Below are positions 5,455-60,615 of a DNA stretch of 64,000 bases, piece after piece. The translations under genes and the position numbers were made by a program. Origin of the DNA: Candidatus Multivoradales bacterium (GTDB lineage Bacteria > Acidobacteriota > Thermoanaerobaculia > Multivoradales > JAHEKO01); contig CBDCYF010000005.1 of assembly GCA_965224065.1 (NCBI GenBank), positions 2,006,695 to 2,070,694 of the forward strand. The letters are read 5' to 3'. The notes under the pieces were generated by a model. The model did no database searches. It was not told the DNA's origin and saw only the letters and a program-made list of their open reading frames with translations. Each line of letters opens with the position of its first letter. The stretch's first letter is position 1.

Positions 5455-6447
5455 ATGGAAGAGACCGGACGGCGAGAGTGGATCGAGACCCAGGGCTTCG
5501 ACGTCGCGCGTCTCGAGCCGCTCGCCGGTGACGTCTCGCAGCGCCAGTACTATCGCGCTTATCTGGGGGCTCATCTAGCGTCGCCGGCGACCGCCATTCT
5601 CGCCACCTATCCACCGGAGATTCGCGAGAGCTGCCGCCGTTTTGAGATCTCGACGCGCTTGCTCGAACTGAGAAACGTGCGGGTGCCCCGGATTCTCGCC
5701 CGCGACTGCGATCGCGGTTTGGCGCTGCTCGAAGACGTCGGACCGCTGACCCTCTACGATCTCGCCGACCGGGATTGGAGCGAGCTCGCCCCGCACCTTT
5801 TCGCCGCCGTCGAGATGATCGGCTCGATCCAAACCGTGCCCGCCGATGTCGTCGAAGAGCTCAACCCACCGCTGGACGGCGCCCTGCTGCGACGAGAGCT
5901 CGCTCAGACCCGCGAGTTGCTCCTGGACGAGCCACCGCTGCGCGCCCCAACGGCCGAACGGCGACGGCTACGCGAGACCCTGGACGCGCTGTGCGAGCGT
6001 CTTGCCGCCGGCCCCACGGCCGTGTGCCACCGCGACTTCATGGCCCGCAATCTGGTACCCCTCGACGGAGGAGGCCTCGCCGTCCTGGACCATCAAGACC
6101 TCCGCATCGGACCGGCGCACTACGACCTGGCGTCGCTCCTGAACGACAGCCTCTTTGTGCCACCGGAGCTCGAGCGGGAGCTGCTCGACGCCTACGGGGT
6201 GTTAGGAAAAGACAGGGACGAAAACGGGGACGCCGACCTGGATCTTTACCGGGCCTGCGCCGCCCAGCGCACGCTCAAGGCCGCCGGCACCTTCGCGGCC
6301 TTTGCGCGGCGTGGCTTTTCCCGCCACCTTCCCCTGATCCCACCGACCCTGGCGCGAGCCGCGGCGCACCTGCGGCAGCTCCCCGAAGGGGCCGAGCTTC
6401 CGGAAGAGCTGTTCGAGTCGTGGGAACGCTACGGGCAAACTGAGTGA
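5455..6447 (+). CDS. APH/ChoK-family phosphotransferase, AmgK-like (MurNAc/GlcNAc anomeric kinase family)
   Basis: The Brenner catalytic motif HRDFMARNLV and the DHQDLRIGPAHYDLASLL activation segment are present. The N-terminal GDVSQRQYYR phosphate-binding loop is typical of the AmgK subfamily. Confidence 0.6.
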   Translation: MEETGRREWIETQGFDVARLEPLAGDVSQRQYYRAYLGAHLASPATAILATYPPEIRESCRRFEISTRLLELRNVRVPRILARDCDRGLALLEDVGPLTLYDLADRDWSELAPHLFAAVEMIGSIQTVPADVVEELNPPLDGALLRRELAQTRELLLDEPPLRAPTAERRRLRETLDALCERLAAGPTAVCHRDFMARNLVPLDGGGLAVLDHQDLRIGPAHYDLASLLNDSLFVPPELERELLDAYGVLGKDRDENGDADLDLYRACAAQRTLKAAGTFAAFARRGFSRHLPLIPPTLARAAAHLRQLPEGAELPEELFESWERYGQTE

Positions 6448-6615
6448 CGGTCCTGCCATTGGCCTCGCCAGGGCCGTTTGACCGAGCGCACGAAAATGAC
6501 GTTGGAAGTTCGAGCTCGGTTCGGCGCGAGGGAAACCGAGGCGCGAGCTAGATCACCGAAGGCCGAGTTGCTCGCGCCGTGCCCCGGTGAGGCCAATGGC
6601 AGGACCGTCACTCAA
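6440..6615. repeat. Long inverted repeat: 26-bp perfect arms (TGAGTGACGGTCCTGCCATTGGCCTC, 29/30 with one mismatch) flanking a ~122-bp GC-rich spacer that holds nested palindromes
   Basis: The arms lie at 6441-6466 and 6589-6614 in reverse-complement orientation. The first arm starts on the kinase stop codon. The element sits in the convergent gap before the tatA 3' end. Confidence 0.85.
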
Positions 6616-6709
6616 CGAGATGCGGGCTAGGAGCCGGCTCTCGAGAGGGCCTCCGACCAAACCACAATGTGCGCAGCCGGAACGTTTCACCGGCTGCCGG
6701 CAGAACCAG

Positions 6710-6895
6710 CTACGACGAGTTCGCGGTCTCTTCGGCCTTGTCGGCGGAGTCTGCCGAGTCGTCCTTGAGGCCCTTGCGGAAGTTCTTGATGCCTTCCCCG
6801 AACCCGCGGCCCAGTTGTGGGAGCTTCGACGCACCAAAGATCACCACGATGATGAGCAGGATGAGCAACAACTCTGGAACGCCGAAGCCGGCCAT
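6710..6895 (-). CDS. tatA: Twin-arginine translocase subunit TatA
   Basis: 61 aa. An N-terminal TM helix is followed by the FGxxKLPxLGRxxGxxIKxFRKG amphipathic-helix signature and an acidic tail. Confidence 0.85.
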
Positions 6896-6999: not shown

Positions 7000-7734
7000 C
7001 TAGTTCGCTACGTGCCAGTCGCGCCGCAAGTGGTCGCGCCACAGCGTCCGGTGGTGCGCGACATAACGGTCGAGGACTCGATCGACGTAGGCCTGGGTCT
7101 CCGGGAAGGGCGGCACCCCGCCAAACCGTAGAACGTTGCCCGGGCCGGCGTTGTACGCCGCCAGAGCGAGCTCGAGGTCCCCACCAAAACGGCTGAGAAG
7201 TTGGCGCAGGTATCGGGTACCGACGTCGACGTTGACGGCGGGGTCCAGAGGATCGTCGGCGCCCAGGAGATCAGCCGTAGACGGCATCACCTGCATCAAG
7301 CCGAGCGCCCCGTCCACCGACACGGCGTAGGGATCGAATCCGGACTCCGCTTCCACCACCGCCGCGATCAGGAGACCGTCCAGCTCGTATCGCTTGGCCG
7401 ATTTCACGATCAGATGGCCGTGCGGCATTCGCCTCAGCAAGCGCCGGCGCTCTCGCTGCGGCAGGTAGTCTCGGAACAGCGTAAAGCTCTCCGGGCGCCG
7501 CCGGATCTCGTCGCCGATCTCGCTCGGGTCGAGAGGCCGCAACTCGACCCCACCCGTCACGCCGTCCACCCACTCGCGCAGCTCGTCGAGAATCACGACC
7601 TCCCTCACCGAGGGTGGCAGCGGACGATTCTCGGGAATCGAGGAAGTCGTCGGAGCGGTGTAGAGGCTGAGTGCCAAAAAGGCGCCAACCCCGACGAGGG
7701 CATTGAATTTCCAACCGGACATCCGGCTCATCAC
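7000..7734 (-). CDS. Lytic transglycosylase (SLT domain) with N-terminal signal/anchor
   Basis: The SLT catalytic region AVVEAESGFDPYAVSVDGALGLMQVMP and the AYNAGPGNV motif are present, with an N-terminal hydrophobic segment. Confidence 0.8.
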   Translation of the reverse strand: MMSRMSGWKFNALVGVGAFLALSLYTAPTTSSIPENRPLPPSVREVVILDELREWVDGVTGGVELRPLDPSEIGDEIRRRPESFTLFRDYLPQRERRRLLRRMPHGHLIVKSAKRYELDGLLIAAVVEAESGFDPYAVSVDGALGLMQVMPSTADLLGADDPLDPAVNVDVGTRYLRQLLSRFGGDLELALAAYNAGPGNVLRFGGVPPFPETQAYVDRVLDRYVAHHRTLWRDHLRRDWHVAN

Positions 7735-18509: not shown

Positions 18510-20012
18510 ATGGAAGAACTCTTCGCCCAGGCGACGCTCGTGACGTACTACCTGATTCTCGGGATGCTGGCTCTTTTTGGTGGCCACCGGCTCCAGCTAC
18601 TGCGTCTCTACTATCGCACACGGCACGTCGAACCACCCGAGCCCCGGACACCCGAGGAGTGGCCCGACGTCACGGTCCAGCTCCCGCTGTTCAACGAGAT
18701 GTACGTAGCCGACCGGTTGATCCGTTCGGTCTGTGCGCTCGACTACCCGCGCGAGCGTCTGCACGTCCAGGTTCTGGACGATTCCACCGACGAGACCCGC
18801 AAAATCGTCGCGGCGACGGTCGAGGAGTATCGCAACCGCGGGTTCTCGATCGAGCATCTGCACCGCACCGACCGCACCGGTTTCAAGGCCGGGGCGCTGG
18901 AGGCCGGGCTGGCGACTGCCCGTGGCGATCTGATCACCATCTTTGACGCCGATTTTGTGCCGATCCCCGAGTACCTCAAGCGCATCGTTCCCTATTTCAC
19001 CGACCTCGCCACCGGCGAGGAGCTCGGCATGGTGCAGGCGTGCTGGGACCACATCAACCGCGACTACTCTCTGTTGACACGCATCCAGGCGGTCTTTCTC
19101 GACGGCCATTTTCTGATCGAGCACGCGGCGCGCAATCGCTCCGGCCGTTTTTTCAACTTCAACGGCACCGCTGGGATGTGGCGCCGGCAGGCGATCGAGG
19201 ACGCCGGCGGCTGGCAGCACGACACGCTGACCGAGGATCTCGACCTCTCCTACCGGGCCCAGCTCGCCGGCTGGAAGTTCCTGTTCCTCCCCCACCTCAA
19301 AGTGCCCGCAGAGCTGCCGGTCGAGGTCAATGCGTTCAAGCGGCAGCAATTCCGCTGGGCCAAGGGATCGATCCAGACCGGGCGCAAACTGCTGTCCCGG
19401 ATCTTGCGCGCCCGCCTGCCGTGGAAGGTCAAGCTCGAGGCGCTGATTCACCTGACCAACAACGCCAGCTACTTGCTGATGGTGGGGCTGTCGCTTCTGA
19501 TCTTCCCGGCGATGACCGTCCGCCGCGGCAGCGAGGCGTGGAGCCTGTTGACTATCGACTTGCCTCTCTTTTTGTGCGCCACCGTGTCGGTCCTGCTTTT
19601 CTATCTCGCCAGCCAGCTCGCGGCCGGGCGTGGGCTCGGGCGCGGGCTCAAACACTTGGCCCCGCTCATGGGCCTGGGCATCGGCCTGGCGATCAACAAC
19701 TCCCGTGCGGTGATCCAGGGACTGGGCAGAGACGTGGGCGTTTTCGAGCGCACGCCAAAGTACAAGATCGAGCACAGCGGCGACGGCTGGTTTGGCAAGA
19801 AGTACCGCGTGGGCGCCGACCTGTCGACGGTGCTCGAAGGCATCCTCGCCGCCTGGTTTGTGTGCGCGTTTGTGCTGGCGTTCAAGATGGGGATGTGGAT
19901 GTCGCTGCCGTTTCTCTATCTGTTCCTGCAAGGCTTCTGCTACATGTACTTGCTGTCGATGTTCTCCACCGGCCGCGGCCGCTGGCGTCCCACCGAGCCG
20001 GCACCGGGCTAG
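18510..20012 (+). CDS. Family-2 glycosyltransferase, processive beta-glycan synthase type (cellulose-synthase-like)
   Basis: It shows two N-terminal TM segments, a GT2 catalytic domain and C-terminal TM segments. The catalytic-domain motifs are DDSTDET, DAD (FDADF), TED (LTEDLD) and the QxxRW motif FKRQQFRWAKG. Confidence 0.8.
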   Translation: MEELFAQATLVTYYLILGMLALFGGHRLQLLRLYYRTRHVEPPEPRTPEEWPDVTVQLPLFNEMYVADRLIRSVCALDYPRERLHVQVLDDSTDETRKIVAATVEEYRNRGFSIEHLHRTDRTGFKAGALEAGLATARGDLITIFDADFVPIPEYLKRIVPYFTDLATGEELGMVQACWDHINRDYSLLTRIQAVFLDGHFLIEHAARNRSGRFFNFNGTAGMWRRQAIEDAGGWQHDTLTEDLDLSYRAQLAGWKFLFLPHLKVPAELPVEVNAFKRQQFRWAKGSIQTGRKLLSRILRARLPWKVKLEALIHLTNNASYLLMVGLSLLIFPAMTVRRGSEAWSLLTIDLPLFLCATVSVLLFYLASQLAAGRGLGRGLKHLAPLMGLGIGLAINNSRAVIQGLGRDVGVFERTPKYKIEHSGDGWFGKKYRVGADLSTVLEGILAAWFVCAFVLAFKMGMWMSLPFLYLFLQGFCYMYLLSMFSTGRGRWRPTEPAPG

Positions 20013-20116: not shown

Positions 20117-20196
20117 CTGAAGCGGCCGCCGTCTCTGGCGGCCGATCATCGGTGTTGGAGCGACCAACGGCTGGCAGAGACGCCAGCCGCTTCAGG
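20117..20196. repeat. Pair of REP-like palindromic elements in inverted orientation (TGAAGCGGCCGCCGTCTCTGGCGGCCG and GGCTGGCAGAGACGCCAGCCGCTTCAGG)
   Basis: Each forms a 7-8-bp GC stem around a GTCTCT/AGAGAC loop. The two differ by compensatory stem changes (CCGCC/GGCGG versus CTGGC/GCCAG). The 28-mer recurs identically at 53827-53854. Confidence 0.8.
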
Positions 20197-20553
20197 CCTC
20201 GATTGATGCGGGCGATTCGCCGCCCTCGGCTCGGACAGAGTCCACCGACCCATACCAGCAGAGTCGCGAGCTGCATGATCGCCAAGTCGGGAGCGCCCAG
20301 CCCCAAGCGTAGTGAATAACCTATGTCGGTTGGCGATCAGCGCCGCCTGGTAAACGCCGCGGCTGGAACGCTGGGAGCCCGTGCGCAAGCAAAAATCGTC
20401 GAAGGACTCACACGGTCCGCACGGGCGGACAACGAGGCGCGAGCCCACGTTCGGAGTTTGCAAAGCGAGCGCCGTTTCCAGCCGGGCGTTTCACCGGGCG
20501 GCCGCTACCCAACCGAGTGGGGCGTTCATTACCCCTGGTAGAGTCCTCGACCG

Positions 20554-21111
20554 ATGCAACCCCAAGTCAAGCCCGCCGCGCGCACGGTCTCGGTGCGGCC
20601 GGTCCACCCCGGTGACTCGGTCCTGCTCGACCGCTGGCGCCGCGAGCCCGAGGTGCGCCGACACCAGCCACTCAACGACTCCACCGTCGCGCAGCTCTAC
20701 TCCGAGCTGTCCCACCAGCACGTTAATGACCTCTACCAGGGCCGGGGCGAGAAGTTCCAGTGGGTTGTCCTTGCCGACGGCCACCCCGCCGGGTGGATCA
20801 CCCTGGTGGTGACCAATTGGACCCACGGCCTGGCCGAGATCGGCTACGCGCTCTCGACGGCCTTCCAACGACAGGGCCTGATGCCCCAAGCGCTCCGCAT
20901 CATTCTGCGGGATCTGTTCACCCGGACCGGGCTGCGGCGCATCGAGGCCCGCTGCGCGATCCAGAACGAGGGCTCGTACAAGGTGCTCGAACGGCTCGGC
21001 TTTCACCGCGAGGGCCGGCTGCGCGACTACTTTGTTCTCGACGGTCAAACCGTCGACAACTACCTCTACGCGATCCTGCGGCGCGAATTCCTGCGGATCC
21101 AAAAACGGTGA
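20554..21111 (+). CDS. GNAT-family N-acetyltransferase (RimJ/RimL-like)
   Basis: The acetyl-CoA binding motif RQGLMPQALRIIL fits the Q/RxxGxG/A pattern, and the C-terminal LGFHREGRLRDYF is typical of RimL/RimJ-type GNATs. Confidence 0.75.
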   Translation: MQPQVKPAARTVSVRPVHPGDSVLLDRWRREPEVRRHQPLNDSTVAQLYSELSHQHVNDLYQGRGEKFQWVVLADGHPAGWITLVVTNWTHGLAEIGYALSTAFQRQGLMPQALRIILRDLFTRTGLRRIEARCAIQNEGSYKVLERLGFHREGRLRDYFVLDGQTVDNYLYAILRREFLRIQKR

Positions 21112-53713: not shown

Positions 53714-53854
53714 AGCGGCCCGCTCAGAACTTGAAGCGGCCGTCGTCCCTGGCGGCCGGGTGGTGGTGTCGCGACTACGGCTGGCAGAGGCGCCAGCCGC
53801 TTCAAATTGGGTCACCCGCCCGGCGTTTGAAGCGGCCGCCGTCTCTGGCGGCCG
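53708..53854. repeat. Cluster of four REP-like palindromic elements (same family as 20117-20196), forming a BIME-like array between dNK and thiG
   Basis: A partial copy overlaps the dNK stop at 53708-53727. A variant, TTGAAGCGGCCGTCGTCCCTGGCGGCCG, lies at 53731-53758. An inverted copy, CGGCTGGCAGAGGCGCCAGCCGCTTCAA, lies at 53778-53805. An exact 28-mer copy lies at 53827-53854. Confidence 0.8.
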
Positions 53855-55248: not shown

Positions 55249-55325
55249 GCACCGATAGCTCAATTGGATAGAGCACCTGACTACGGATCAGGAGGTTGGG
55301 GATTCGAGTTCTCCTCGGTGCACCA
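55249..55325 (+). tRNA. tRNA-Arg (anticodon ACG), with encoded CCA
   Basis: The 7-bp acceptor stem is GCACCGA/TCGGTGC. The D-arm is AGCTCAATTGGATAGAGC. The anticodon stem CCTGA/TCAGG encloses loop CTACGGA. The T-arm is GGGGATTCGAGTTCTCC, and the 3' end is ACCA. It closely resembles E. coli tRNA-Arg(ACG). Confidence 0.85.
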
Positions 55326-55439
55326 TTTGTTTCAATCACTTACGGCTTCGTTGAACGTCGGCGTCAGCACTCGCCGGTGGAGCCCGAGGGTGCCAAAAAG
55401 TCAGCCGACTAGCTTAGCCTCCCTTTATACGGGCCGCGC

Positions 55440-55740
55440 GACATCGATTTCGCCTTCTGGATCACATCCGGTGTGGGCTCGTAGGCTTTGGCGATCTCGC
55501 ACTCTCTCTTGTTTCTCGTCTTCACAAGTCGCCGGATAAGCTGAACCATCAGCAGCAGGATCTGATCGACTACCTGCGAGAAAAGAATCGGATCCTGCGG
55601 AAGCATCTTGGCTCCAGCGTCTTCGGCTCACGGATGAGCAGTGCCGTCGCCTTGCCGTTCGAGGCAAGGTGCTCGGACGCAAGCGCCTTGACGAGACCGC
55701 CGGACCCCAATCTAGACCCCCAGTGTCCCAAGCGTGTCGG
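55440..55740 (+). pseudogene. Frameshifted N-terminal remnant of a DDE (integrase-core) transposase
   Basis: One frame reads DLIDYLREKNRILRKHLG. A +1 frame continues KRLRLTDEQCRRLAVRGKVLGRKRLDETAG. Together these match the conserved N-terminal HTH/leucine-zipper region (…LRHQL.VL.RQ…RPRLRPADRALLAAL…) of a widespread transposase family. No catalytic domain follows. Confidence 0.45.
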
Positions 55741-55913
55741 CGGATTGCTCAGCTACTACCGGCGCGAGGCCGCGCCACCTGAGCTGTGGGCCGATTTATT
55801 TGCGCCCTGCGGACGGCGACGCTGTTGAGCGCAGTTGGGAAGGAAGATGCTAGACTCCCTCTGACTCCTATACAGATAAGGTCTTCCTAACCGCCCGAGG
55901 AGGTGCAACAGGA

Positions 55914-56699
55914 ATGAGATCCGCGACATTTACGCTGGCGCGACCTTCAGAAGAGTGTGTGTACCGAACCGCCGCTCTGTTTGTGCTTGCAGCACTCATC
56001 TTGCCCGTTCAGGTCTCCGCGAGACCCAAGAGGAATCTGCCAGACAATTCTCCTTTATTGTGGACCTTGACAGACGAAATAAGCCCAACGGAACTTCGCC
56101 GTGCTAGAAACGACCCTCAAGCAGTGCGATTGAGAGCCAAGGCTTCTCGGATGGCCCCGGAAGCAAGATCTCGACTAACCGACTTTGTAGATGGCAGAGC
56201 GACACCCGCTCTGGTCACAATGGCTGAAGCCTTAACAGGTTTTGCGGGTTACTTTGATAGCGATGTGGCGGGCGAGGCCAGCATAGGCAAGCTTGTTGCG
56301 TGGTATCAACACTTCCATATTTCTACGGATGGCGCGGACAGGCTTACAGAGTTTATGGTCAGAATGGACAAAACCTACAAAAGGCACCAATCGCTGGTGG
56401 GTACCGATCACGTCGATATCGCCAAGTCAATTGCCAGACTAGAAGAGCAGACTAAGAAGAGTCATCCGAAGCTGTGGATCGCTTTCGAGACGAACGATCT
56501 CAAGACGCTTTCTAAAGGCTTGGATATGCCGATCAGAAAACTGCGCAAGAAGCTCCGCTATAACTACGATCCATGGGACCGGTATCTAAGCAACAACCTA
56601 CCTCAATTGCGCAGCGACCTTTCACCATACGATTGGAAAGGACTTAGAACTATGTTGTACGAAGTCGTGGTTCCGGGTTTTTCCTCGATATCCCAATAG
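55914..56699 (+). CDS. Exported protein of unknown function (island gene 1)
   Basis: GC is about 50% against about 68% in the flanks. An N-terminal hydrophobic signal/anchor (AALFVLAALILPVQVSA) is present. I recognise no domain. Confidence 0.5.
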   Translation: MRSATFTLARPSEECVYRTAALFVLAALILPVQVSARPKRNLPDNSPLLWTLTDEISPTELRRARNDPQAVRLRAKASRMAPEARSRLTDFVDGRATPALVTMAEALTGFAGYFDSDVAGEASIGKLVAWYQHFHISTDGADRLTEFMVRMDKTYKRHQSLVGTDHVDIAKSIARLEEQTKKSHPKLWIAFETNDLKTLSKGLDMPIRKLRKKLRYNYDPWDRYLSNNLPQLRSDLSPYDWKGLRTMLYEVVVPGFSSISQ

Positions 56700-56714
56700 A
56701 GTAAGGCAACGGTT

Positions 56715-57764
56715 ATGACAACAAGGGTCCGTTACCTCGTCAGTGCCGCAGCACTAGCAACAACCTTCACCACGGTGGTCGCACCGCTGAATGCGGGAAC
56801 AATTTCTATCTGGGCTTACATGGATATCAACTTGGCTACCCACCCGGAGAAAGATTGGGTAATCGCGGGGCACCGAGCTACCTACAATAATTTCGCTGGT
56901 AAGGACTATTACCAGTATAACTTTTCTGCAGACGAGAATAATTATTGTTTCGACGCTACGGACGGCTGGGACTCCGGGTTCATCAACCATAACGCATCCC
57001 AATTCGGGGCCATTACATCCAATAGTTTTGTAAAGAGGGCTGACAAATCTAACGGGAGCGATGCCTCTGCGTTGTGTTGGAGCTGCCTGGGCGACAGAGA
57101 TCCAAATGAGTATGTGGCAACGGGCTTTGCACACGTCTTCAGGGGCACCAAGCTAATTGCCTCGCTTTCAAAGTCGTACGCAAGAGACAGCGGCAGTCTT
57201 TGTTTGTGGAGTATCGAGCCGCCGCAAAGTCCGATTATTCTCGACATGGGTGGAGACAACATCAGACTTTCCGGTCCGAGCGTAGAGTTTGATATTGACG
57301 CAGATGGTGATTTAGAGCTTGTTTCCTGGGTCAAGAAAGCCGATGATGTTTTCTTAGCCTTTGATAGGAATGGCAACGGAACTGTGGACAACGGGGCAGA
57401 ACTGCTCGGTGACTCTACTCCGCTGCTTAACGGAGCGACAGCAGAACATGGCTTTCAGGTGCTAGCTGAATTGGACTTGCCTGAGAACGGGGGAAACGGT
57501 GATGGGTATTTTACTGAAGAAGATTCTACTTTCGGGGAACTTCTTCTTTGGTCAGACAGCAATCGAGATGGATTTGGGGGCAGCGGTGAACTTCAACCGG
57601 CAAGCAGCGCGGGATTGGTGTCGATCGATCTCGACTATGTTGAAAGCCGGCGGCGGGACCGCCACGGCAATGAGTTCCGCTATAACACCAAGGCTGCGAT
57701 CATAATAGACGGTAAAACCGGGATCCGCCATGCAAGCGATGTGTTTCTGGTAACCATCGAGTAA
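56715..57764 (+). CDS. Exported protein with EF-hand-like Ca-binding loops (island gene 2)
   Basis: The signal peptide is LVSAAALATTFTTVVAPLNAG. Three D-x-[DN]-x-[DN]-G loops are present (DIDADGDLE, DRNGNGTVDNGAE, DSNRDGFGGSGE). The region is low in GC. Confidence 0.5.
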   Translation: MTTRVRYLVSAAALATTFTTVVAPLNAGTISIWAYMDINLATHPEKDWVIAGHRATYNNFAGKDYYQYNFSADENNYCFDATDGWDSGFINHNASQFGAITSNSFVKRADKSNGSDASALCWSCLGDRDPNEYVATGFAHVFRGTKLIASLSKSYARDSGSLCLWSIEPPQSPIILDMGGDNIRLSGPSVEFDIDADGDLELVSWVKKADDVFLAFDRNGNGTVDNGAELLGDSTPLLNGATAEHGFQVLAELDLPENGGNGDGYFTEEDSTFGELLLWSDSNRDGFGGSGELQPASSAGLVSIDLDYVESRRRDRHGNEFRYNTKAAIIIDGKTGIRHASDVFLVTIE

Positions 57765-57803
57765 TGGCCTCGAATTACCTTGCCGCAGTTTTTTGATGGA
57801 GAA

Positions 57804-58400
57804 TTATTCCAGGCCACGGGGAACTCTAGCGAGAGTTCCCATAAAGTTTTCGTCTACTTTCCAGCCATTGTTGGTCGGGTGAACTCGTAGCTGACCCTCG
57901 AGTCGGCGTGCGACGAGGTTCTCGTGTCTGGAGGCAGTTTTTTGCAACGCTGGGTGCTCGATCCAGTTCTTTGTGACCTCTGCCCAGTATTCGAACTTCA
58001 CGTCTGAGTAAACCTTCCCAGGACGGACCGGCTCGGTGAAGTCCTTAATCTGTATGCGGGACTCTCCAAAGATCAGGCAGTCGCCAAGGAAGTTTTTCTT
58101 GTTGAATGACTCCCCCTTTTCTGTGAGTACATAAGTGACCTTGGTTTTTTTATTGGGTTTCTGATCCGCTGTTGGATCCCAGGGCATTTCCGGAGCGTTA
58201 ACGACTTCGATCTTCTTCTCCATCATGCCTGCCTGTACCAAGGAATCTTCATTCCCAAGTGTTCCAAGACAGGCGGTGTGGTTATCCGCTAAGAACGCTT
58301 CTATGGCATCGGTAAGCTCCGCCTCCGAGACCCCTACAGCGCAGCCGAATGAGAATCCACAGGCAAACAGCAGTACAACAGCCCAACACTGGTTTCTCAT
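57804..58400 (-). CDS. Probable lipoprotein of unknown function (island gene 3)
   Basis: I chose the ATG at 58400 (MRNQCWAVVLLFACGFSFGCAVG, hydrophobic with Cys). It is low in GC and convergent with island gene 2. Confidence 0.45.
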   Translation of the reverse strand: MRNQCWAVVLLFACGFSFGCAVGVSEAELTDAIEAFLADNHTACLGTLGNEDSLVQAGMMEKKIEVVNAPEMPWDPTADQKPNKKTKVTYVLTEKGESFNKKNFLGDCLIFGESRIQIKDFTEPVRPGKVYSDVKFEYWAEVTKNWIEHPALQKTASRHENLVARRLEGQLRVHPTNNGWKVDENFMGTLARVPRGLE

Positions 58401-58827
58401 CGGCTCTTCTTTAGTAGGTTCGGCGTCGCCAATAACTACCGCGTCCACGTGCTTCATGACACGCAAAAAGGCCCTGTGTCAAGAGATCTGCGCTGTGCGT
58501 GCTCCCGTCCTATCCGAAAATTGGATCATGCATAACTTGTTCTCTCGCCCGCGACCCGAAAACTCCGGCGCCCCGCCTCTTCAGGCCGGTTGAGTCTTAC
58601 GTTTATTGACGGCTCTCCGCGTCGAGGCTAATCTGTCGTCAGATATCCGACCCTTCTAGAGGAGACGGAGATGAGGCTCTGTGGCGGAGTCTCCGCTGTA
58701 GAGCCTGCTGGTTTTTGGGATCGCGTCCGCGCCGGGACACTGTAAACGACCGTCGCTGTTCGACGCTTGCCCGACAGAACCCCGCCGGCTGGTCCGTCTA
58801 ACCCCAGAGAGGAGGCAAAGCAAAATC

Positions 58828-60615
58828 ATGAAAGCCAAGCGCACGGTTTTAGACGCAGAGCTCCTGTCAATGGCCGACCGCATGGCGCCCGACGCGCCCG
58901 ACAGAGCCGAGCTTCTTTCCGAAGCTGTGGTTCGGAGGGGTCTGGTGGCCACCGACGCGGCTCCGGCGCCCCCCGAGGGAATCACGATCAAGTTGGTCTG
59001 TCGCGCTGGCGAGAGCGAGGCCGGAGCGGCCTGGGTCCGTGAGGCTGGCGGCGACGTGGTCTCGACCGCCGGCGAGGTCCTGGTGGCCAACGTTCCCTCA
59101 GCCCAGCTTGGGGCGCTCGAGAGCATGTCGTGGATCCGGCGCGCCGAGGCGCCCCGCTATCTGATGCCCAAGCTCGACGAGGCTCGTGCGGTCTCGGGTC
59201 TCGACGCCGCTCTCAACGAGCACACTCTCACCGGCAACGGGGTTCTTCTGGGTGTGGTCGACACCGGGGTCGACTGGGGCCATCAGGACTTTCAGAACGA
59301 CGACGACACCACCCGGTTCGAGCTCTTTGTCCACGCCTTTGTGCCACCTGGCCAGGAGGTCTCGCAGATCGACGAGTTCGATGCCGCGGCGATCAACGCC
59401 ACGCTCCAAGGCAACGGCAACGCGCCGCAAGGTGACCCGAACGGGCACGGTACCCACTGCGCCTCGATTGCCGCCGGTAACGGCCGCTCGATCAACGGCA
59501 ATCCGTTCCGAGGGGTGGCCCCCGGTGCGGCCCTGGTGGGTGTCCGCAGCGAGCCCTTGCTCGACACCCACACAATCTTCGGAATCCGTCGCACTTTCGA
59601 GCTGGCCGGCAACCGCCCCGCAGTGGTGAGCCTGAGCCTGGGCGGGCATCTCGGTGCCCACGACGGCACCACCGCCCTCGAGAACGCCATCGCACGCGAA
59701 TCGGGACCGGGCCGGATCGTAGTCATCGCGGCCGGCAATGAGGGCGGCGACGGGATCCACTTCGCCGGCGAGATGGAAGAAGGCGTAGATCTCGAGATCC
59801 CGGTCCGGAACAGCGACCCCAACCTGCAGTTCATAGACGTGTGGATCGAGCGTGGCGACGAGGTCGACGTGGTGATCGAGTCACCCGACGGCGTCCAGCA
59901 CCCCGCGGATGGCACCGTCCAGGAAACCGATTTCGGTTTCTTCCGTGCCGATTTCCGAGAGGATTCGATCAACCGCGACCAGAACTTGACGCTGGCTATG
60001 GCCGGAGGCCAGGCCAATGACATTTGGACGATCCGTATTCAGCCACAAGTGGTTCGGCATGGGATGGTCCACGCCTGGGGCGCTACTCGTGACGCCTCCA
60101 CCTCGCGCCAGTTCTTCCCTGGATCGACCGACCCGTCATTTTCGATCGGGATGCCGGCCACCGAGGAGCGCGCGATCTCGGTGGGCTCGCTGGTCAGCCG
60201 CACAAGCTTTCAGACCGTCAACGGCACGGTCAATACGACATTGAGCAACGGCCAGCTCTCGAGCTTCTCGAGCCACGGACCGACTCGCTATGGGGCCCTC
60301 AAGCCCGATCTCGCCGCACCCGGGCAATTCGTGACCGCGGCCCTATCGGCGAACTCGGATCTGGACAACAACGTGGCGCAGCGCCACCACCCCAACGGGC
60401 CATACGTGACCATTCAGGGGACCAGCATGGCGACCCCGTTCGTCGCCGGTGTCGTGGCACTGTTGCTGGAGCGCGAGCCGAACCTGACCCCGGAGGAGGT
60501 TCAACAACGCCTGCGCATCACCTGTCGGCGCGACGGCAACACAGGGCGCGTGTGGGGCGGAGGCTTTGGTTTCGGGAAGCTCGACGTGGAAGCCCTACTC
60601 AATTATCAGGGCTGA
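58828..60615 (+). CDS. Subtilisin-like serine peptidase (S8 family) with N-terminal I9-like propeptide and no signal peptide
   Basis: The catalytic triad motifs are VVDTGVDWGH (Asp), HGTHCASIAAG (His) and GTSMATPFVAG (Ser), with an oxyanion Asn in AAGNEG. The N-terminal 100 aa show a β-α-β propeptide-like pattern. Confidence 0.85.
   Translation: MKAKRTVLDAELLSMADRMAPDAPDRAELLSEAVVRRGLVATDAAPAPPEGITIKLVCRAGESEAGAAWVREAGGDVVSTAGEVLVANVPSAQLGALESMSWIRRAEAPRYLMPKLDEARAVSGLDAALNEHTLTGNGVLLGVVDTGVDWGHQDFQNDDDTTRFELFVHAFVPPGQEVSQIDEFDAAAINATLQGNGNAPQGDPNGHGTHCASIAAGNGRSINGNPFRGVAPGAALVGVRSEPLLDTHTIFGIRRTFELAGNRPAVVSLSLGGHLGAHDGTTALENAIARESGPGRIVVIAAGNEGGDGIHFAGEMEEGVDLEIPVRNSDPNLQFIDVWIERGDEVDVVIESPDGVQHPADGTVQETDFGFFRADFREDSINRDQNLTLAMAGGQANDIWTIRIQPQVVRHGMVHAWGATRDASTSRQFFPGSTDPSFSIGMPATEERAISVGSLVSRTSFQTVNGTVNTTLSNGQLSSFSSHGPTRYGALKPDLAAPGQFVTAALSANSDLDNNVAQRHHPNGPYVTIQGTSMATPFVAGVVALLLEREPNLTPEEVQQRLRITCRRDGNTGRVWGGGFGFGKLDVEALLNYQG

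Follow-up and report, generated by a model that had tools for sequence, protein, structure and literature searches.

A probable new family of dispersed intergenic hairpin repeats in Acidobacteriota, conserved at the core and variable at the arms

In Pseudomonas and the Enterobacteria, REPINs and REP-BIMEs are built from doublets of repetitive extragenic palindromes (REP) that form hairpins and are thought to be mobilised by RAYT transposases, while for ERIC sequences orientation-dependent effects on mRNA stability have been proposed. Here we describe an element that can be compared with both: an inverted repeat at positions 6441-6614 of a 64-kb stretch of contig CBDCYF010000005.1 from Candidatus Multivoradales bacterium (Acidobacteriota), the whole of which we refer to as the window. 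The element is probably one copy of a new family of dispersed, non-coding, hairpin-forming intergenic repeats of Acidobacteriota, of the general kind represented by REPIN/BIME, ERIC or MITEs (miniature inverted-repeat transposable elements), and it may have a functional RNA role besides.

The likeness to REPINs and BIMEs is broad. Both they and this family are interspersed, non-coding and strictly intergenic, reach tens of copies or more per genome, form long hairpins whose base pairs are preserved through compensated changes, are found in mosaics alongside different repeat types and lack target-site duplications. Their organisation, however, is the opposite: REPINs conserve two terminal REPs of 20-40 nt with a GTAG/CGTC tag and have a variable middle, whereas here it is the middle that is conserved and the outer arms that vary. 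No RAYT gene was seen at the 27 loci, and an identity as tagged REP was rejected, there being no conserved GTAG/CGTC at the stem foot. A GTAG does lie within the loop of helix 3 (P3) of many copies without being conserved, as the window copy has GTTG there and the syntenic copy of a relative GAAG. ERIC/IRU elements (imperfect palindromes of about 127 bp) share with this family the imperfect palindromy over 100-200 nt, a place in intergenic and probably transcribed regions, and conservation across species at different loci; neither has a settled mechanism of mobility. On the other hand, ERIC comes from an unrelated taxon, is unrelated in sequence and forms a simple hairpin, whereas this family spans about 180-240 nt and has a three-way junction and a copy-specific outer stem.

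The Acidobacteriota, an abundant group, have received little study, and neither Rfam nor the searchable literature, queried by topic and by sequence words, yielded an interspersed repeat family of this kind. Neither the element nor the whole window matches an Rfam family, be it 6S, Y RNA/YrlA, a riboswitch, a ribozyme, Acido-1, Acido-Lenti-1 or another, as the single hit, which scored 38 bits with plant MIR918 (gathering score 268), was rejected as a generic long-hairpin artefact; seven loci with other copies returned nothing at E <= 1. Searches for phage, plasmid and viral-contig matches were likewise empty.

The inverted repeat and its dispersed relatives

The initial annotation of this locus had reported a perfect 26-bp inverted repeat around a 122-bp spacer, and the coordinates bear this out: the 26-nt arm TGAGTGACGGTCCTGCCATTGGCCTC (6441-6466, forward strand) recurs as its exact reverse complement at 6589-6614, with 122 nt between. 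The match runs slightly further than the 29 of 30 positions given then, since arms extended to 34 nt (6441-6474 and 6581-6614, 106 nt apart) are complementary at 32 positions (94%), the two mismatches being one G.T and one A.C. This is the longest and best inverted repeat of the window, in which no further arm copy occurs at up to three mismatches; at the same threshold none of 100 dinucleotide-preserving shuffles of the window held an arm match. The nested palindromes described in the spacer are also present, namely CGAGCTCG at 6511-6518 and GGCGCGAG...CTCGCGCC at about 6540-6578. A 185-nt stretch folds into a single long stem with a branched tip, with a predicted RNA energy of -116.5 kcal/mol on the forward strand (z = -10.5) and -114 kcal/mol on the reverse strand (z = -11.8), and as DNA the element reaches -64 kcal/mol (z = -8.9). 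As noted initially, no target-site duplication is seen at the window copy (flanks ...GGGCAAAC / arm...arm / ACGAGATG).

What had been taken for a spacer turned out to be the conserved part of the element. A relative with a syntenic locus, the Acidobacteriota metagenome-assembled genome (MAG) JAOTZA01 (loci L001/L002), has the same gene order around this site, with a kinase 63% identical to that of the window and a kinase-tatA gap of 268 bp. In that gap a 22-nt block, CAGGGCCGTTTGACCGAGCGCA, is identical to the window, as are GGCGCGAGG, ACCGAGG and CGCGCCGTGCCC, and the hairpin between the shared blocks differs by compensated changes. The arm sequence differs, yet a long closing stem of unrelated sequence still forms. 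The 106-nt spacer can thus be described as a conserved core consisting of CAGGGnCGTTTGACCGAGCGCA, a variable apex, CGGCGCGAGGnnnACCGAGG, a covarying hairpin and CCGTGCCCnG, and together with the arms it gives the following features of the window copy, in which P1 is the closing stem, P2 and P3 are the two inner helices and J denotes the junctions between them:

6441..6474, no strand assigned: 5' arm, the 5' strand of P1; perfect over 26 nt (6441-6466), homologous to the variable outer and inner parts of the family's P1
6469..6490, forward strand: conserved block 1, CAGGGCCGTTTGACCGAGCGCA; inner P1, junction J1/2 (TTTGA) and 5' strand of P2 (CC-GA-GCGC)
6491..6521, forward strand: hypervariable P2 apex with the CGAGCTCG palindrome; about 47% identity among copies, length 31-32 nt
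6522..6540, forward strand: conserved block 2, CGGCGCGAGGGAAACCGAG; 3' strand of P2 (GCGC-GA-GG), junction J2/3 and ACCGAG
6541..6577, forward strand: P3 hairpin GCGCGAGC...GCTCGCGC, the nested palindrome noted initially
6578..6586, forward strand: conserved block 3, CGTGCCCCG; junction J3/1 and 3' strand of inner P1
6581..6614, no strand assigned: 3' arm, the 3' strand of P1; reverse complement of the 5' arm at 32 of 34 positions

Further copies were found with sequence patterns and with a covariance model. With a tight pattern, 27 hits were obtained on metagenome contigs, none of them an obvious chance match; 25 lie on separate stretches of metagenome Ga0224508, which matches JAOTZA01, and the other two are further copies of a divergent variant. 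Our covariance model, R1 (143 positions and 33 pairs, built from 23 copies, with E-values that are rough), scored 26 hits above 100 bits in Ga0224508, including one that the pattern had missed, so that the strong copies there number 26 on 25 contigs; four of these loci are present in JAOTZA01 as well. A loose pattern with 23 specified bases and wide gaps, run against species-representative genomes, found at least four further copies on other contigs of JAOTZA01 and the divergent variant in at least two other Acidobacteriota MAGs; among the matches listed, about 110 were chance occurrences in G+C-rich coding DNA and six were true. The divergent variant occurs in four other Acidobacteriota assemblies at 82-87% identity within the element, the flanking genes not being shared, and its P2 apex carries compensated changes (CCGCGCG/CGCGCGG against CCACGCG/CGCGTGG). 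Copy number, which the initial annotation had proposed as a check, comes to 26 strong copies in one related genome, a variant in four assemblies and a distant member in the window itself, with the source genome covered over 64 kb.

A conserved junction closed by arms that may need only to pair

Across copies, the family can be summarised as a closing stem P1 of 30-45 bp with a three-way junction at its tip. In the consensus of the related genome, the outermost GCGAGCC pairs with GGCTCGC in many copies and is followed by a variable paired stem of about 15 nt; the inner stem GGAGGCTCC-AY-CAGGGACG then pairs with CGT-G-CCCTG-C-GGAGACTCC, with a G.A mismatch in 16 of 23 copies. P2 (CC-GA-GCGC / GCGC-GA-GG) contains a tandem G.A and carries a poorly structured apex of 31-32 nt, for which no common fold was found among copies, and P3 is formed by GCGCGNGC and GCNCGCGC. 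The junctions read TTTGA before P2, and GAAA with CCGAG after it. Block 1, apart from its identity to the syntenic copy, is invariant or nearly so in 23 aligned copies; block 2 is invariant in all copies, the divergent variant included; and CCGTGCCCTG in block 3 is nearly invariant. Invariant stretches include GACCGAG and GCGCGAGG. In the related genome most copies have GGAGTCC as a recurrent motif of their P2 and P3 loops, and the window copy has a degenerate form of it. We placed the helices manually before counting, since RNAalifold, given the raw MAFFT alignment, mis-drew P2 and P3. Three copies (L134, L142 and L148) form a sub-variant in which GCGCCGTGCCCTG is replaced by GCGCAGTCTnnnnGAnnAGACTCCCTG, with an extra small hairpin at J3/1, and the sub-palindromes inside the arms (GCCATTGGC, GGAGGCTCC) were dismissed as out of register between genomes and within chance.

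Copies of the related genome are about 86% identical outside the P2 apex and about 47% identical within it, a contrast that shows them not to be a recent burst, and changes in the core are being filtered by something, be it competence for spread or host function. The outer 5' strand of P1 falls to about 53%. The syntenic copy is 85% identical to its paralogues, just as close as these are to one another, while the window copy stands at the same distance from every one of them (mean identity 76%, with 73% to the syntenic copy); each genome thus has a consensus of its own. Coding is ruled out by an apex that differs by 1 nt in length among copies and by indels that are not multiples of three.

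Despite this divergence, each arm fits its own partner. We scored the specificity by duplex energies; column-wise pairing goes out of register where internal loops differ, and gives 0.4 even for the perfectly paired window copy. For the outer 16 nt, the mean energy with the own partner was -23.8 kcal/mol against -13.3 (sd 4.9) across copies, and the own partner ranked first of 26 in 15 copies, the window copy among them. Over 23 copies, 89.9% of the cells (one pair in one copy) were paired, against 32-52% with slid partners, and 47 cells had changed on both sides, against 15.1 +/- 3.6 in shuffles. These double changes fall in 15 pairs and are concentrated in outer P1 and in P3; one outer P1 pair, for example, is CG in seven copies, GC in seven and UA in seven. 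In P3, 95% of cells are paired and four pairs change on both sides, one of them being CG in 13 copies, UG in six, UA in three and AU in one. The six P2 pairs never vary and are for that reason uninformative on structure. The 5' arm of the window (...CGGTCCTGCCATTGGCCTC) aligns with the family consensus CGGCCCGGnCGGAGGCTCC, and each difference is compensated on the opposite arm, so on alignment grounds the window arms are a diverged version of the family's stem. Conservation of the arms in relatives, a point raised in the initial annotation, thus splits in two: their sequence is not conserved, their pairing is.

This pattern reverses the usual logic of MITEs and REPINs, as the centre is conserved and the ends are free yet strictly complementary. 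The initial annotation had listed a MITE-like mobile element among its options, which fits insofar as the element belongs to a multi-copy family, but not as regards its arms, which are the least conserved part (about 53%), copy-specific and without visible target-site duplication. A classical MITE would be an internally deleted insertion sequence whose terminal inverted repeats are read by a transposase acting in trans, and a small, non-coding element with long inverted termini and many copies in a relative would look much like this one; its window arm also begins with TG and ends with CA, a possible likeness to IS3-family ends. However, the termini differ even between copies of one genome, and the most conserved part is the centre, the opposite of what is expected of a deletion derivative. 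Across the 26 copies there is no consistent direct repeat at the stem feet (the ends are set by pairing only, and a 2-bp duplication would still be possible), there is no transposase beside any of them, no cognate insertion sequence was found, and matches in plasmids, phages and viruses are absent. We consider such an origin very unlikely. The same features separate the family from the Correia/NEMIS elements of Neisseria and other MITEs derived from insertion sequences: while size class, long inverted termini (26 bp in Correia), intergenic position and RNA hairpins in read-through transcripts are alike, what sets Correia elements apart is conserved terminal inverted repeats together with a duplicated TA target, neither of which this family has.

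We propose instead that the conserved junction core, rather than the termini, is recognised by the factor that propagates or uses the element, possibly a hairpin- or single-stranded DNA-binding enzyme or a host protein. The arms would need only to pair, and selection on the hairpin, intrastrand templated correction of quasi-palindromes or the two together could keep them complementary. Templated quasi-palindrome correction is established in E. coli genetics. Either route would explain how a copy diverged by 24-27% from its relatives can still have a perfect 26-bp stem. The family is therefore a natural test case for the upkeep of long palindromes by selection on RNA or single-stranded DNA hairpins versus templated correction and, as a second question, for what reads the conserved junction.

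Genomic context and the case for and against a functional RNA

Gene calls at the metagenome loci are approximate and come from a codon-usage model fitted to these very contigs, used in place of a crude GC3 finder that called spurious open reading frames (ORFs). Every copy of the related genome is intergenic, and convergent, tandem and divergent gene pairs all flank copies. Downstream, 12 genes share the orientation of the element and 12 oppose it; upstream, the respective counts are 12 and 11. Neighbours are unrelated housekeeping genes; with functions read by eye, they include leuA/leuB-like genes, topoisomerase I, trmFO, a TonB-dependent receptor, a proton pyrophosphatase, ribosomal proteins S6 and L35, dUTPase and nuoF, and no transposase or recombinase is found among the genes beside the 26 copies. 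The 5' side of many copies holds other long-hairpin repeats, family A of about 190 nt and family B of about 260 nt. Families A and the one studied here are distantly homologous and lie in inverse orientation, and R1 detects A-type repeats beside copies of the latter on the opposite strand at 23-39 bits; chance hits of R1 in unrelated G+C-rich genomes reach about 25-27 bits, so the weakest of these are borderline. Together with the studied family, here C, these repeats are often ordered B-A-C in fixed relative orientation, in BIME-like mosaics (L124-L150; for instance L131, at about 9.5-10.3 kb).

The window itself contains a second, distant member:

20352..20493, forward strand: A-type member, matched by R1 over its full length at 34.4 bits (E = 1.8e-07, whole window, filters off)

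Its long imperfect arms reach about 20332-20517, and it is 71-79% identical by BLASTN to A-type repeats of the related genome. The 541-bp gap in which it lies is bounded by genes for a GT2 glycosyltransferase (18510-20012) and a GNAT acetyltransferase (20554-21111). In the related genome this gap also contains an A-type copy (L152, 1943-2088), on the other strand and at a different position, and none is present in a more distant relative.

The main rival is a functional structured RNA family, made up of trans-acting small RNAs, protein-sequestering RNAs or cis-acting modules of 3' untranslated regions, in which the three-way junction would be the active site or a platform that binds protein, and the long P1 a stem serving processing or stability. 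It would account for junction nucleotides that are conserved next to an apex free to vary, for the covariation of P1 and P3, for an excess of G.U over A.C pairs on one strand, for the recurrent GGAGUCC in P2 and P3 loops, for the compensated changes in the P2 apex of the divergent variant, and for the occupation of the same gaps in two diverged genomes. The initial annotation had offered a large structured small RNA as an option; the covariation and the conserved three-way junction agree with its being structured, but 26 randomly oriented copies beside unrelated neighbours of every functional class, with no recognisable promoters or T-tract terminators, are not what an ordinary small RNA gene or cis-regulator would show. 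At the window copy no promoter-like or terminator-like site was called and no T run follows the stem on either strand, and in the flanks of other copies no recognisable promoter or T-tract terminator is visible. Moreover, the minus strand folds equally well, there is no Rfam relative, and the clustering with other palindromic repeat families is as in REP/BIME. Overall, we regard a family of functional RNAs as unlikely, if by no means negligible.

Several observations weigh against a dispersed mobile repeat as well. Neither a mobilising enzyme nor an empty site nor, at base resolution, an insertion polymorphism was detected, and mobility is therefore putative. Site-specific conservation of the core beside a randomised apex is what would be expected of a functional RNA or of a protein-binding site. 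On the modelled strand G.U pairs outnumber A.C pairs by 43 to 23 (15 to 5 in P3), and although this bias of 2:1 is modest and the copies are not independent, it points moderately to a strand-specific constraint that acts on RNA or on a single DNA strand. Furthermore, both members in the window have a same-type counterpart in the same gap of the relative, which makes long residence more likely than rapid turnover, and the 64 kb covered of the source genome hold just one C-type and one A-type element. We nevertheless favour a dispersed repeat family. A more tentative idea, which we hold to be rather doubtful, is that the family and its A-type relatives form a new class of elements recognised at a conserved three-way-junction apex and not at the ends. 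These may be multi-copy structured RNA or single-stranded DNA modules that purifying selection maintains at dozens of loci in each genome throughout the Acidobacteriota, for instance as platforms for protein binding or processing; or they may be non-autonomous mobile elements whose enzyme reads the branched hairpin tip and tolerates any paired stem. If the family is merely a selfish repeat, its description is useful annotation and no surprise.

A number of known identities were weighed by eye and rejected. The string UGACCGA...GAAAC resembles a hammerhead core but has extra bases and no Rfam hit; the tandem GA in P2 lacks the 3-nt bulge of a kink-turn; a riboswitch or leader does not fit an element that is not 5' of a conserved gene; no partner gene for 6S RNA, Y RNA, retron msr-msd, omega or bridge RNAs is nearby; and a sigma-70 promoter using the TTGACC of block 1 is not borne out, as there is no conserved -10 element.

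The kinase-tatA junction and other repeats of the window

The genes around the element are as follows:

5455..6447, forward strand: APH-family phosphotransferase gene, N-acetylmuramate kinase-like (Pfam APH, E = 2.4e-22)
6710..6895, reverse strand: tatA (Pfam TatA_B_E, E = 1.2e-17), 95 nt from the 3' arm
7000-7734, reverse strand: lytic transglycosylase gene, beyond tatA

Homologues of the kinase are labelled N-acetylmuramate 1-kinase by JGI. The gap is convergent, as initially described, with the kinase on the forward strand facing tatA on the reverse strand. The first arm, however, does not begin on the kinase stop codon: the in-frame TGA is at 6445-6447, within the arm, which covers the last four coding bases and the stop, while the TGA at 6441-6443 is out of frame. 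An RNA reading through from the kinase or from tatA would end in a hairpin of about -116 kcal/mol, which could form a barrier or a stabiliser between kinase and tatA. More generally, repeats at gene ends, here across a stop codon, may shape the 3'-end stability of neighbouring transcripts. They may also break assemblies, because one metagenomic contig ends in a repeat-bearing gap (ENA contig k141_868288).

A position between convergent genes, an extremely stable hairpin and the lack of any other terminator-like site in the gap would suit a bidirectional terminator that evolved locally for the kinase and tatA. Yet the element recurs at 26 other places, among them gaps flanked by divergent or by tandem genes, neither side has a T-tract, and a stem of 34 bp topped by a 106-nt branched tip is far longer than those of terminators. 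As the origin of the element a local terminator is refuted, and in any form we give this explanation hardly any credence.

The history of the gap bears on another possibility. Four more distant relatives (L003-L006) carry tatA after the kinase and on its strand, across a gap of about 50-70 bp that lacks the element, and we thus conclude that tatA was inverted in the lineage of the window and its syntenic relative, where the kinase is followed by tatA and the transglycosylase gene on the opposite strand. The element sits at the junction made by this inversion. It might be a recombination or inversion site, whose arms mediated the tatA inversion, or an attC-like hairpin for a tyrosine or HUH recombinase. 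The opposite orientation of the A-type elements in the glycosyltransferase-acetyltransferase gap of the two genomes is what a core flipping between its own arms would produce, and the conserved G.A mismatch of P1 (16 of 23 copies) can be likened to the bases, extrahelical or mismatched, through which attC sites mark the choice of strand. Integron attC sites are also alike in forming hairpins in which pairing rather than arm sequence is kept, with a branched or variable tip and a conserved stem mismatch. On the other hand, attC sites stand in ordered cassette arrays beside an integrase and conserve structure rather than sequence, apart from short R/L boxes, whereas this family has a sequence-conserved core of about 60 nt and is scattered singly, with no recombinase gene nearby and no cassette-like array. 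The link to inversion, moreover, rests on one event, and we judge a recombination site to be highly improbable.

Additional repeats were observed in the window. A perfect small hairpin at 6673-6697, GCAGCCGG-AACGTTTCA-CCGGCTGC, lies 12 nt past the tatA stop codon and resembles both the A-type repeat arm AGCCGGGCGTTTCACCGGGCG (20480-20500) and hairpins 3' of several family copies in the related genome. Short REP-like palindromes of another family, (T)TGAAGCGGCCGCCGTCTCTGGCGGCCG and its complement, are found in intergenic DNA at 20117-20195 and 53728-53854, as one pair at 20.1 kb and as three alternating units at 53.7 kb. Finally, downstream of tRNA-Arg(ACG) (55249-55325), a region of about 3.5 kb (55249-58830) has gaps of 291, 613, 1104 and 361 bp and ORFs with weak coding scores under a codon-usage model, and could be an integrated or degraded foreign segment.

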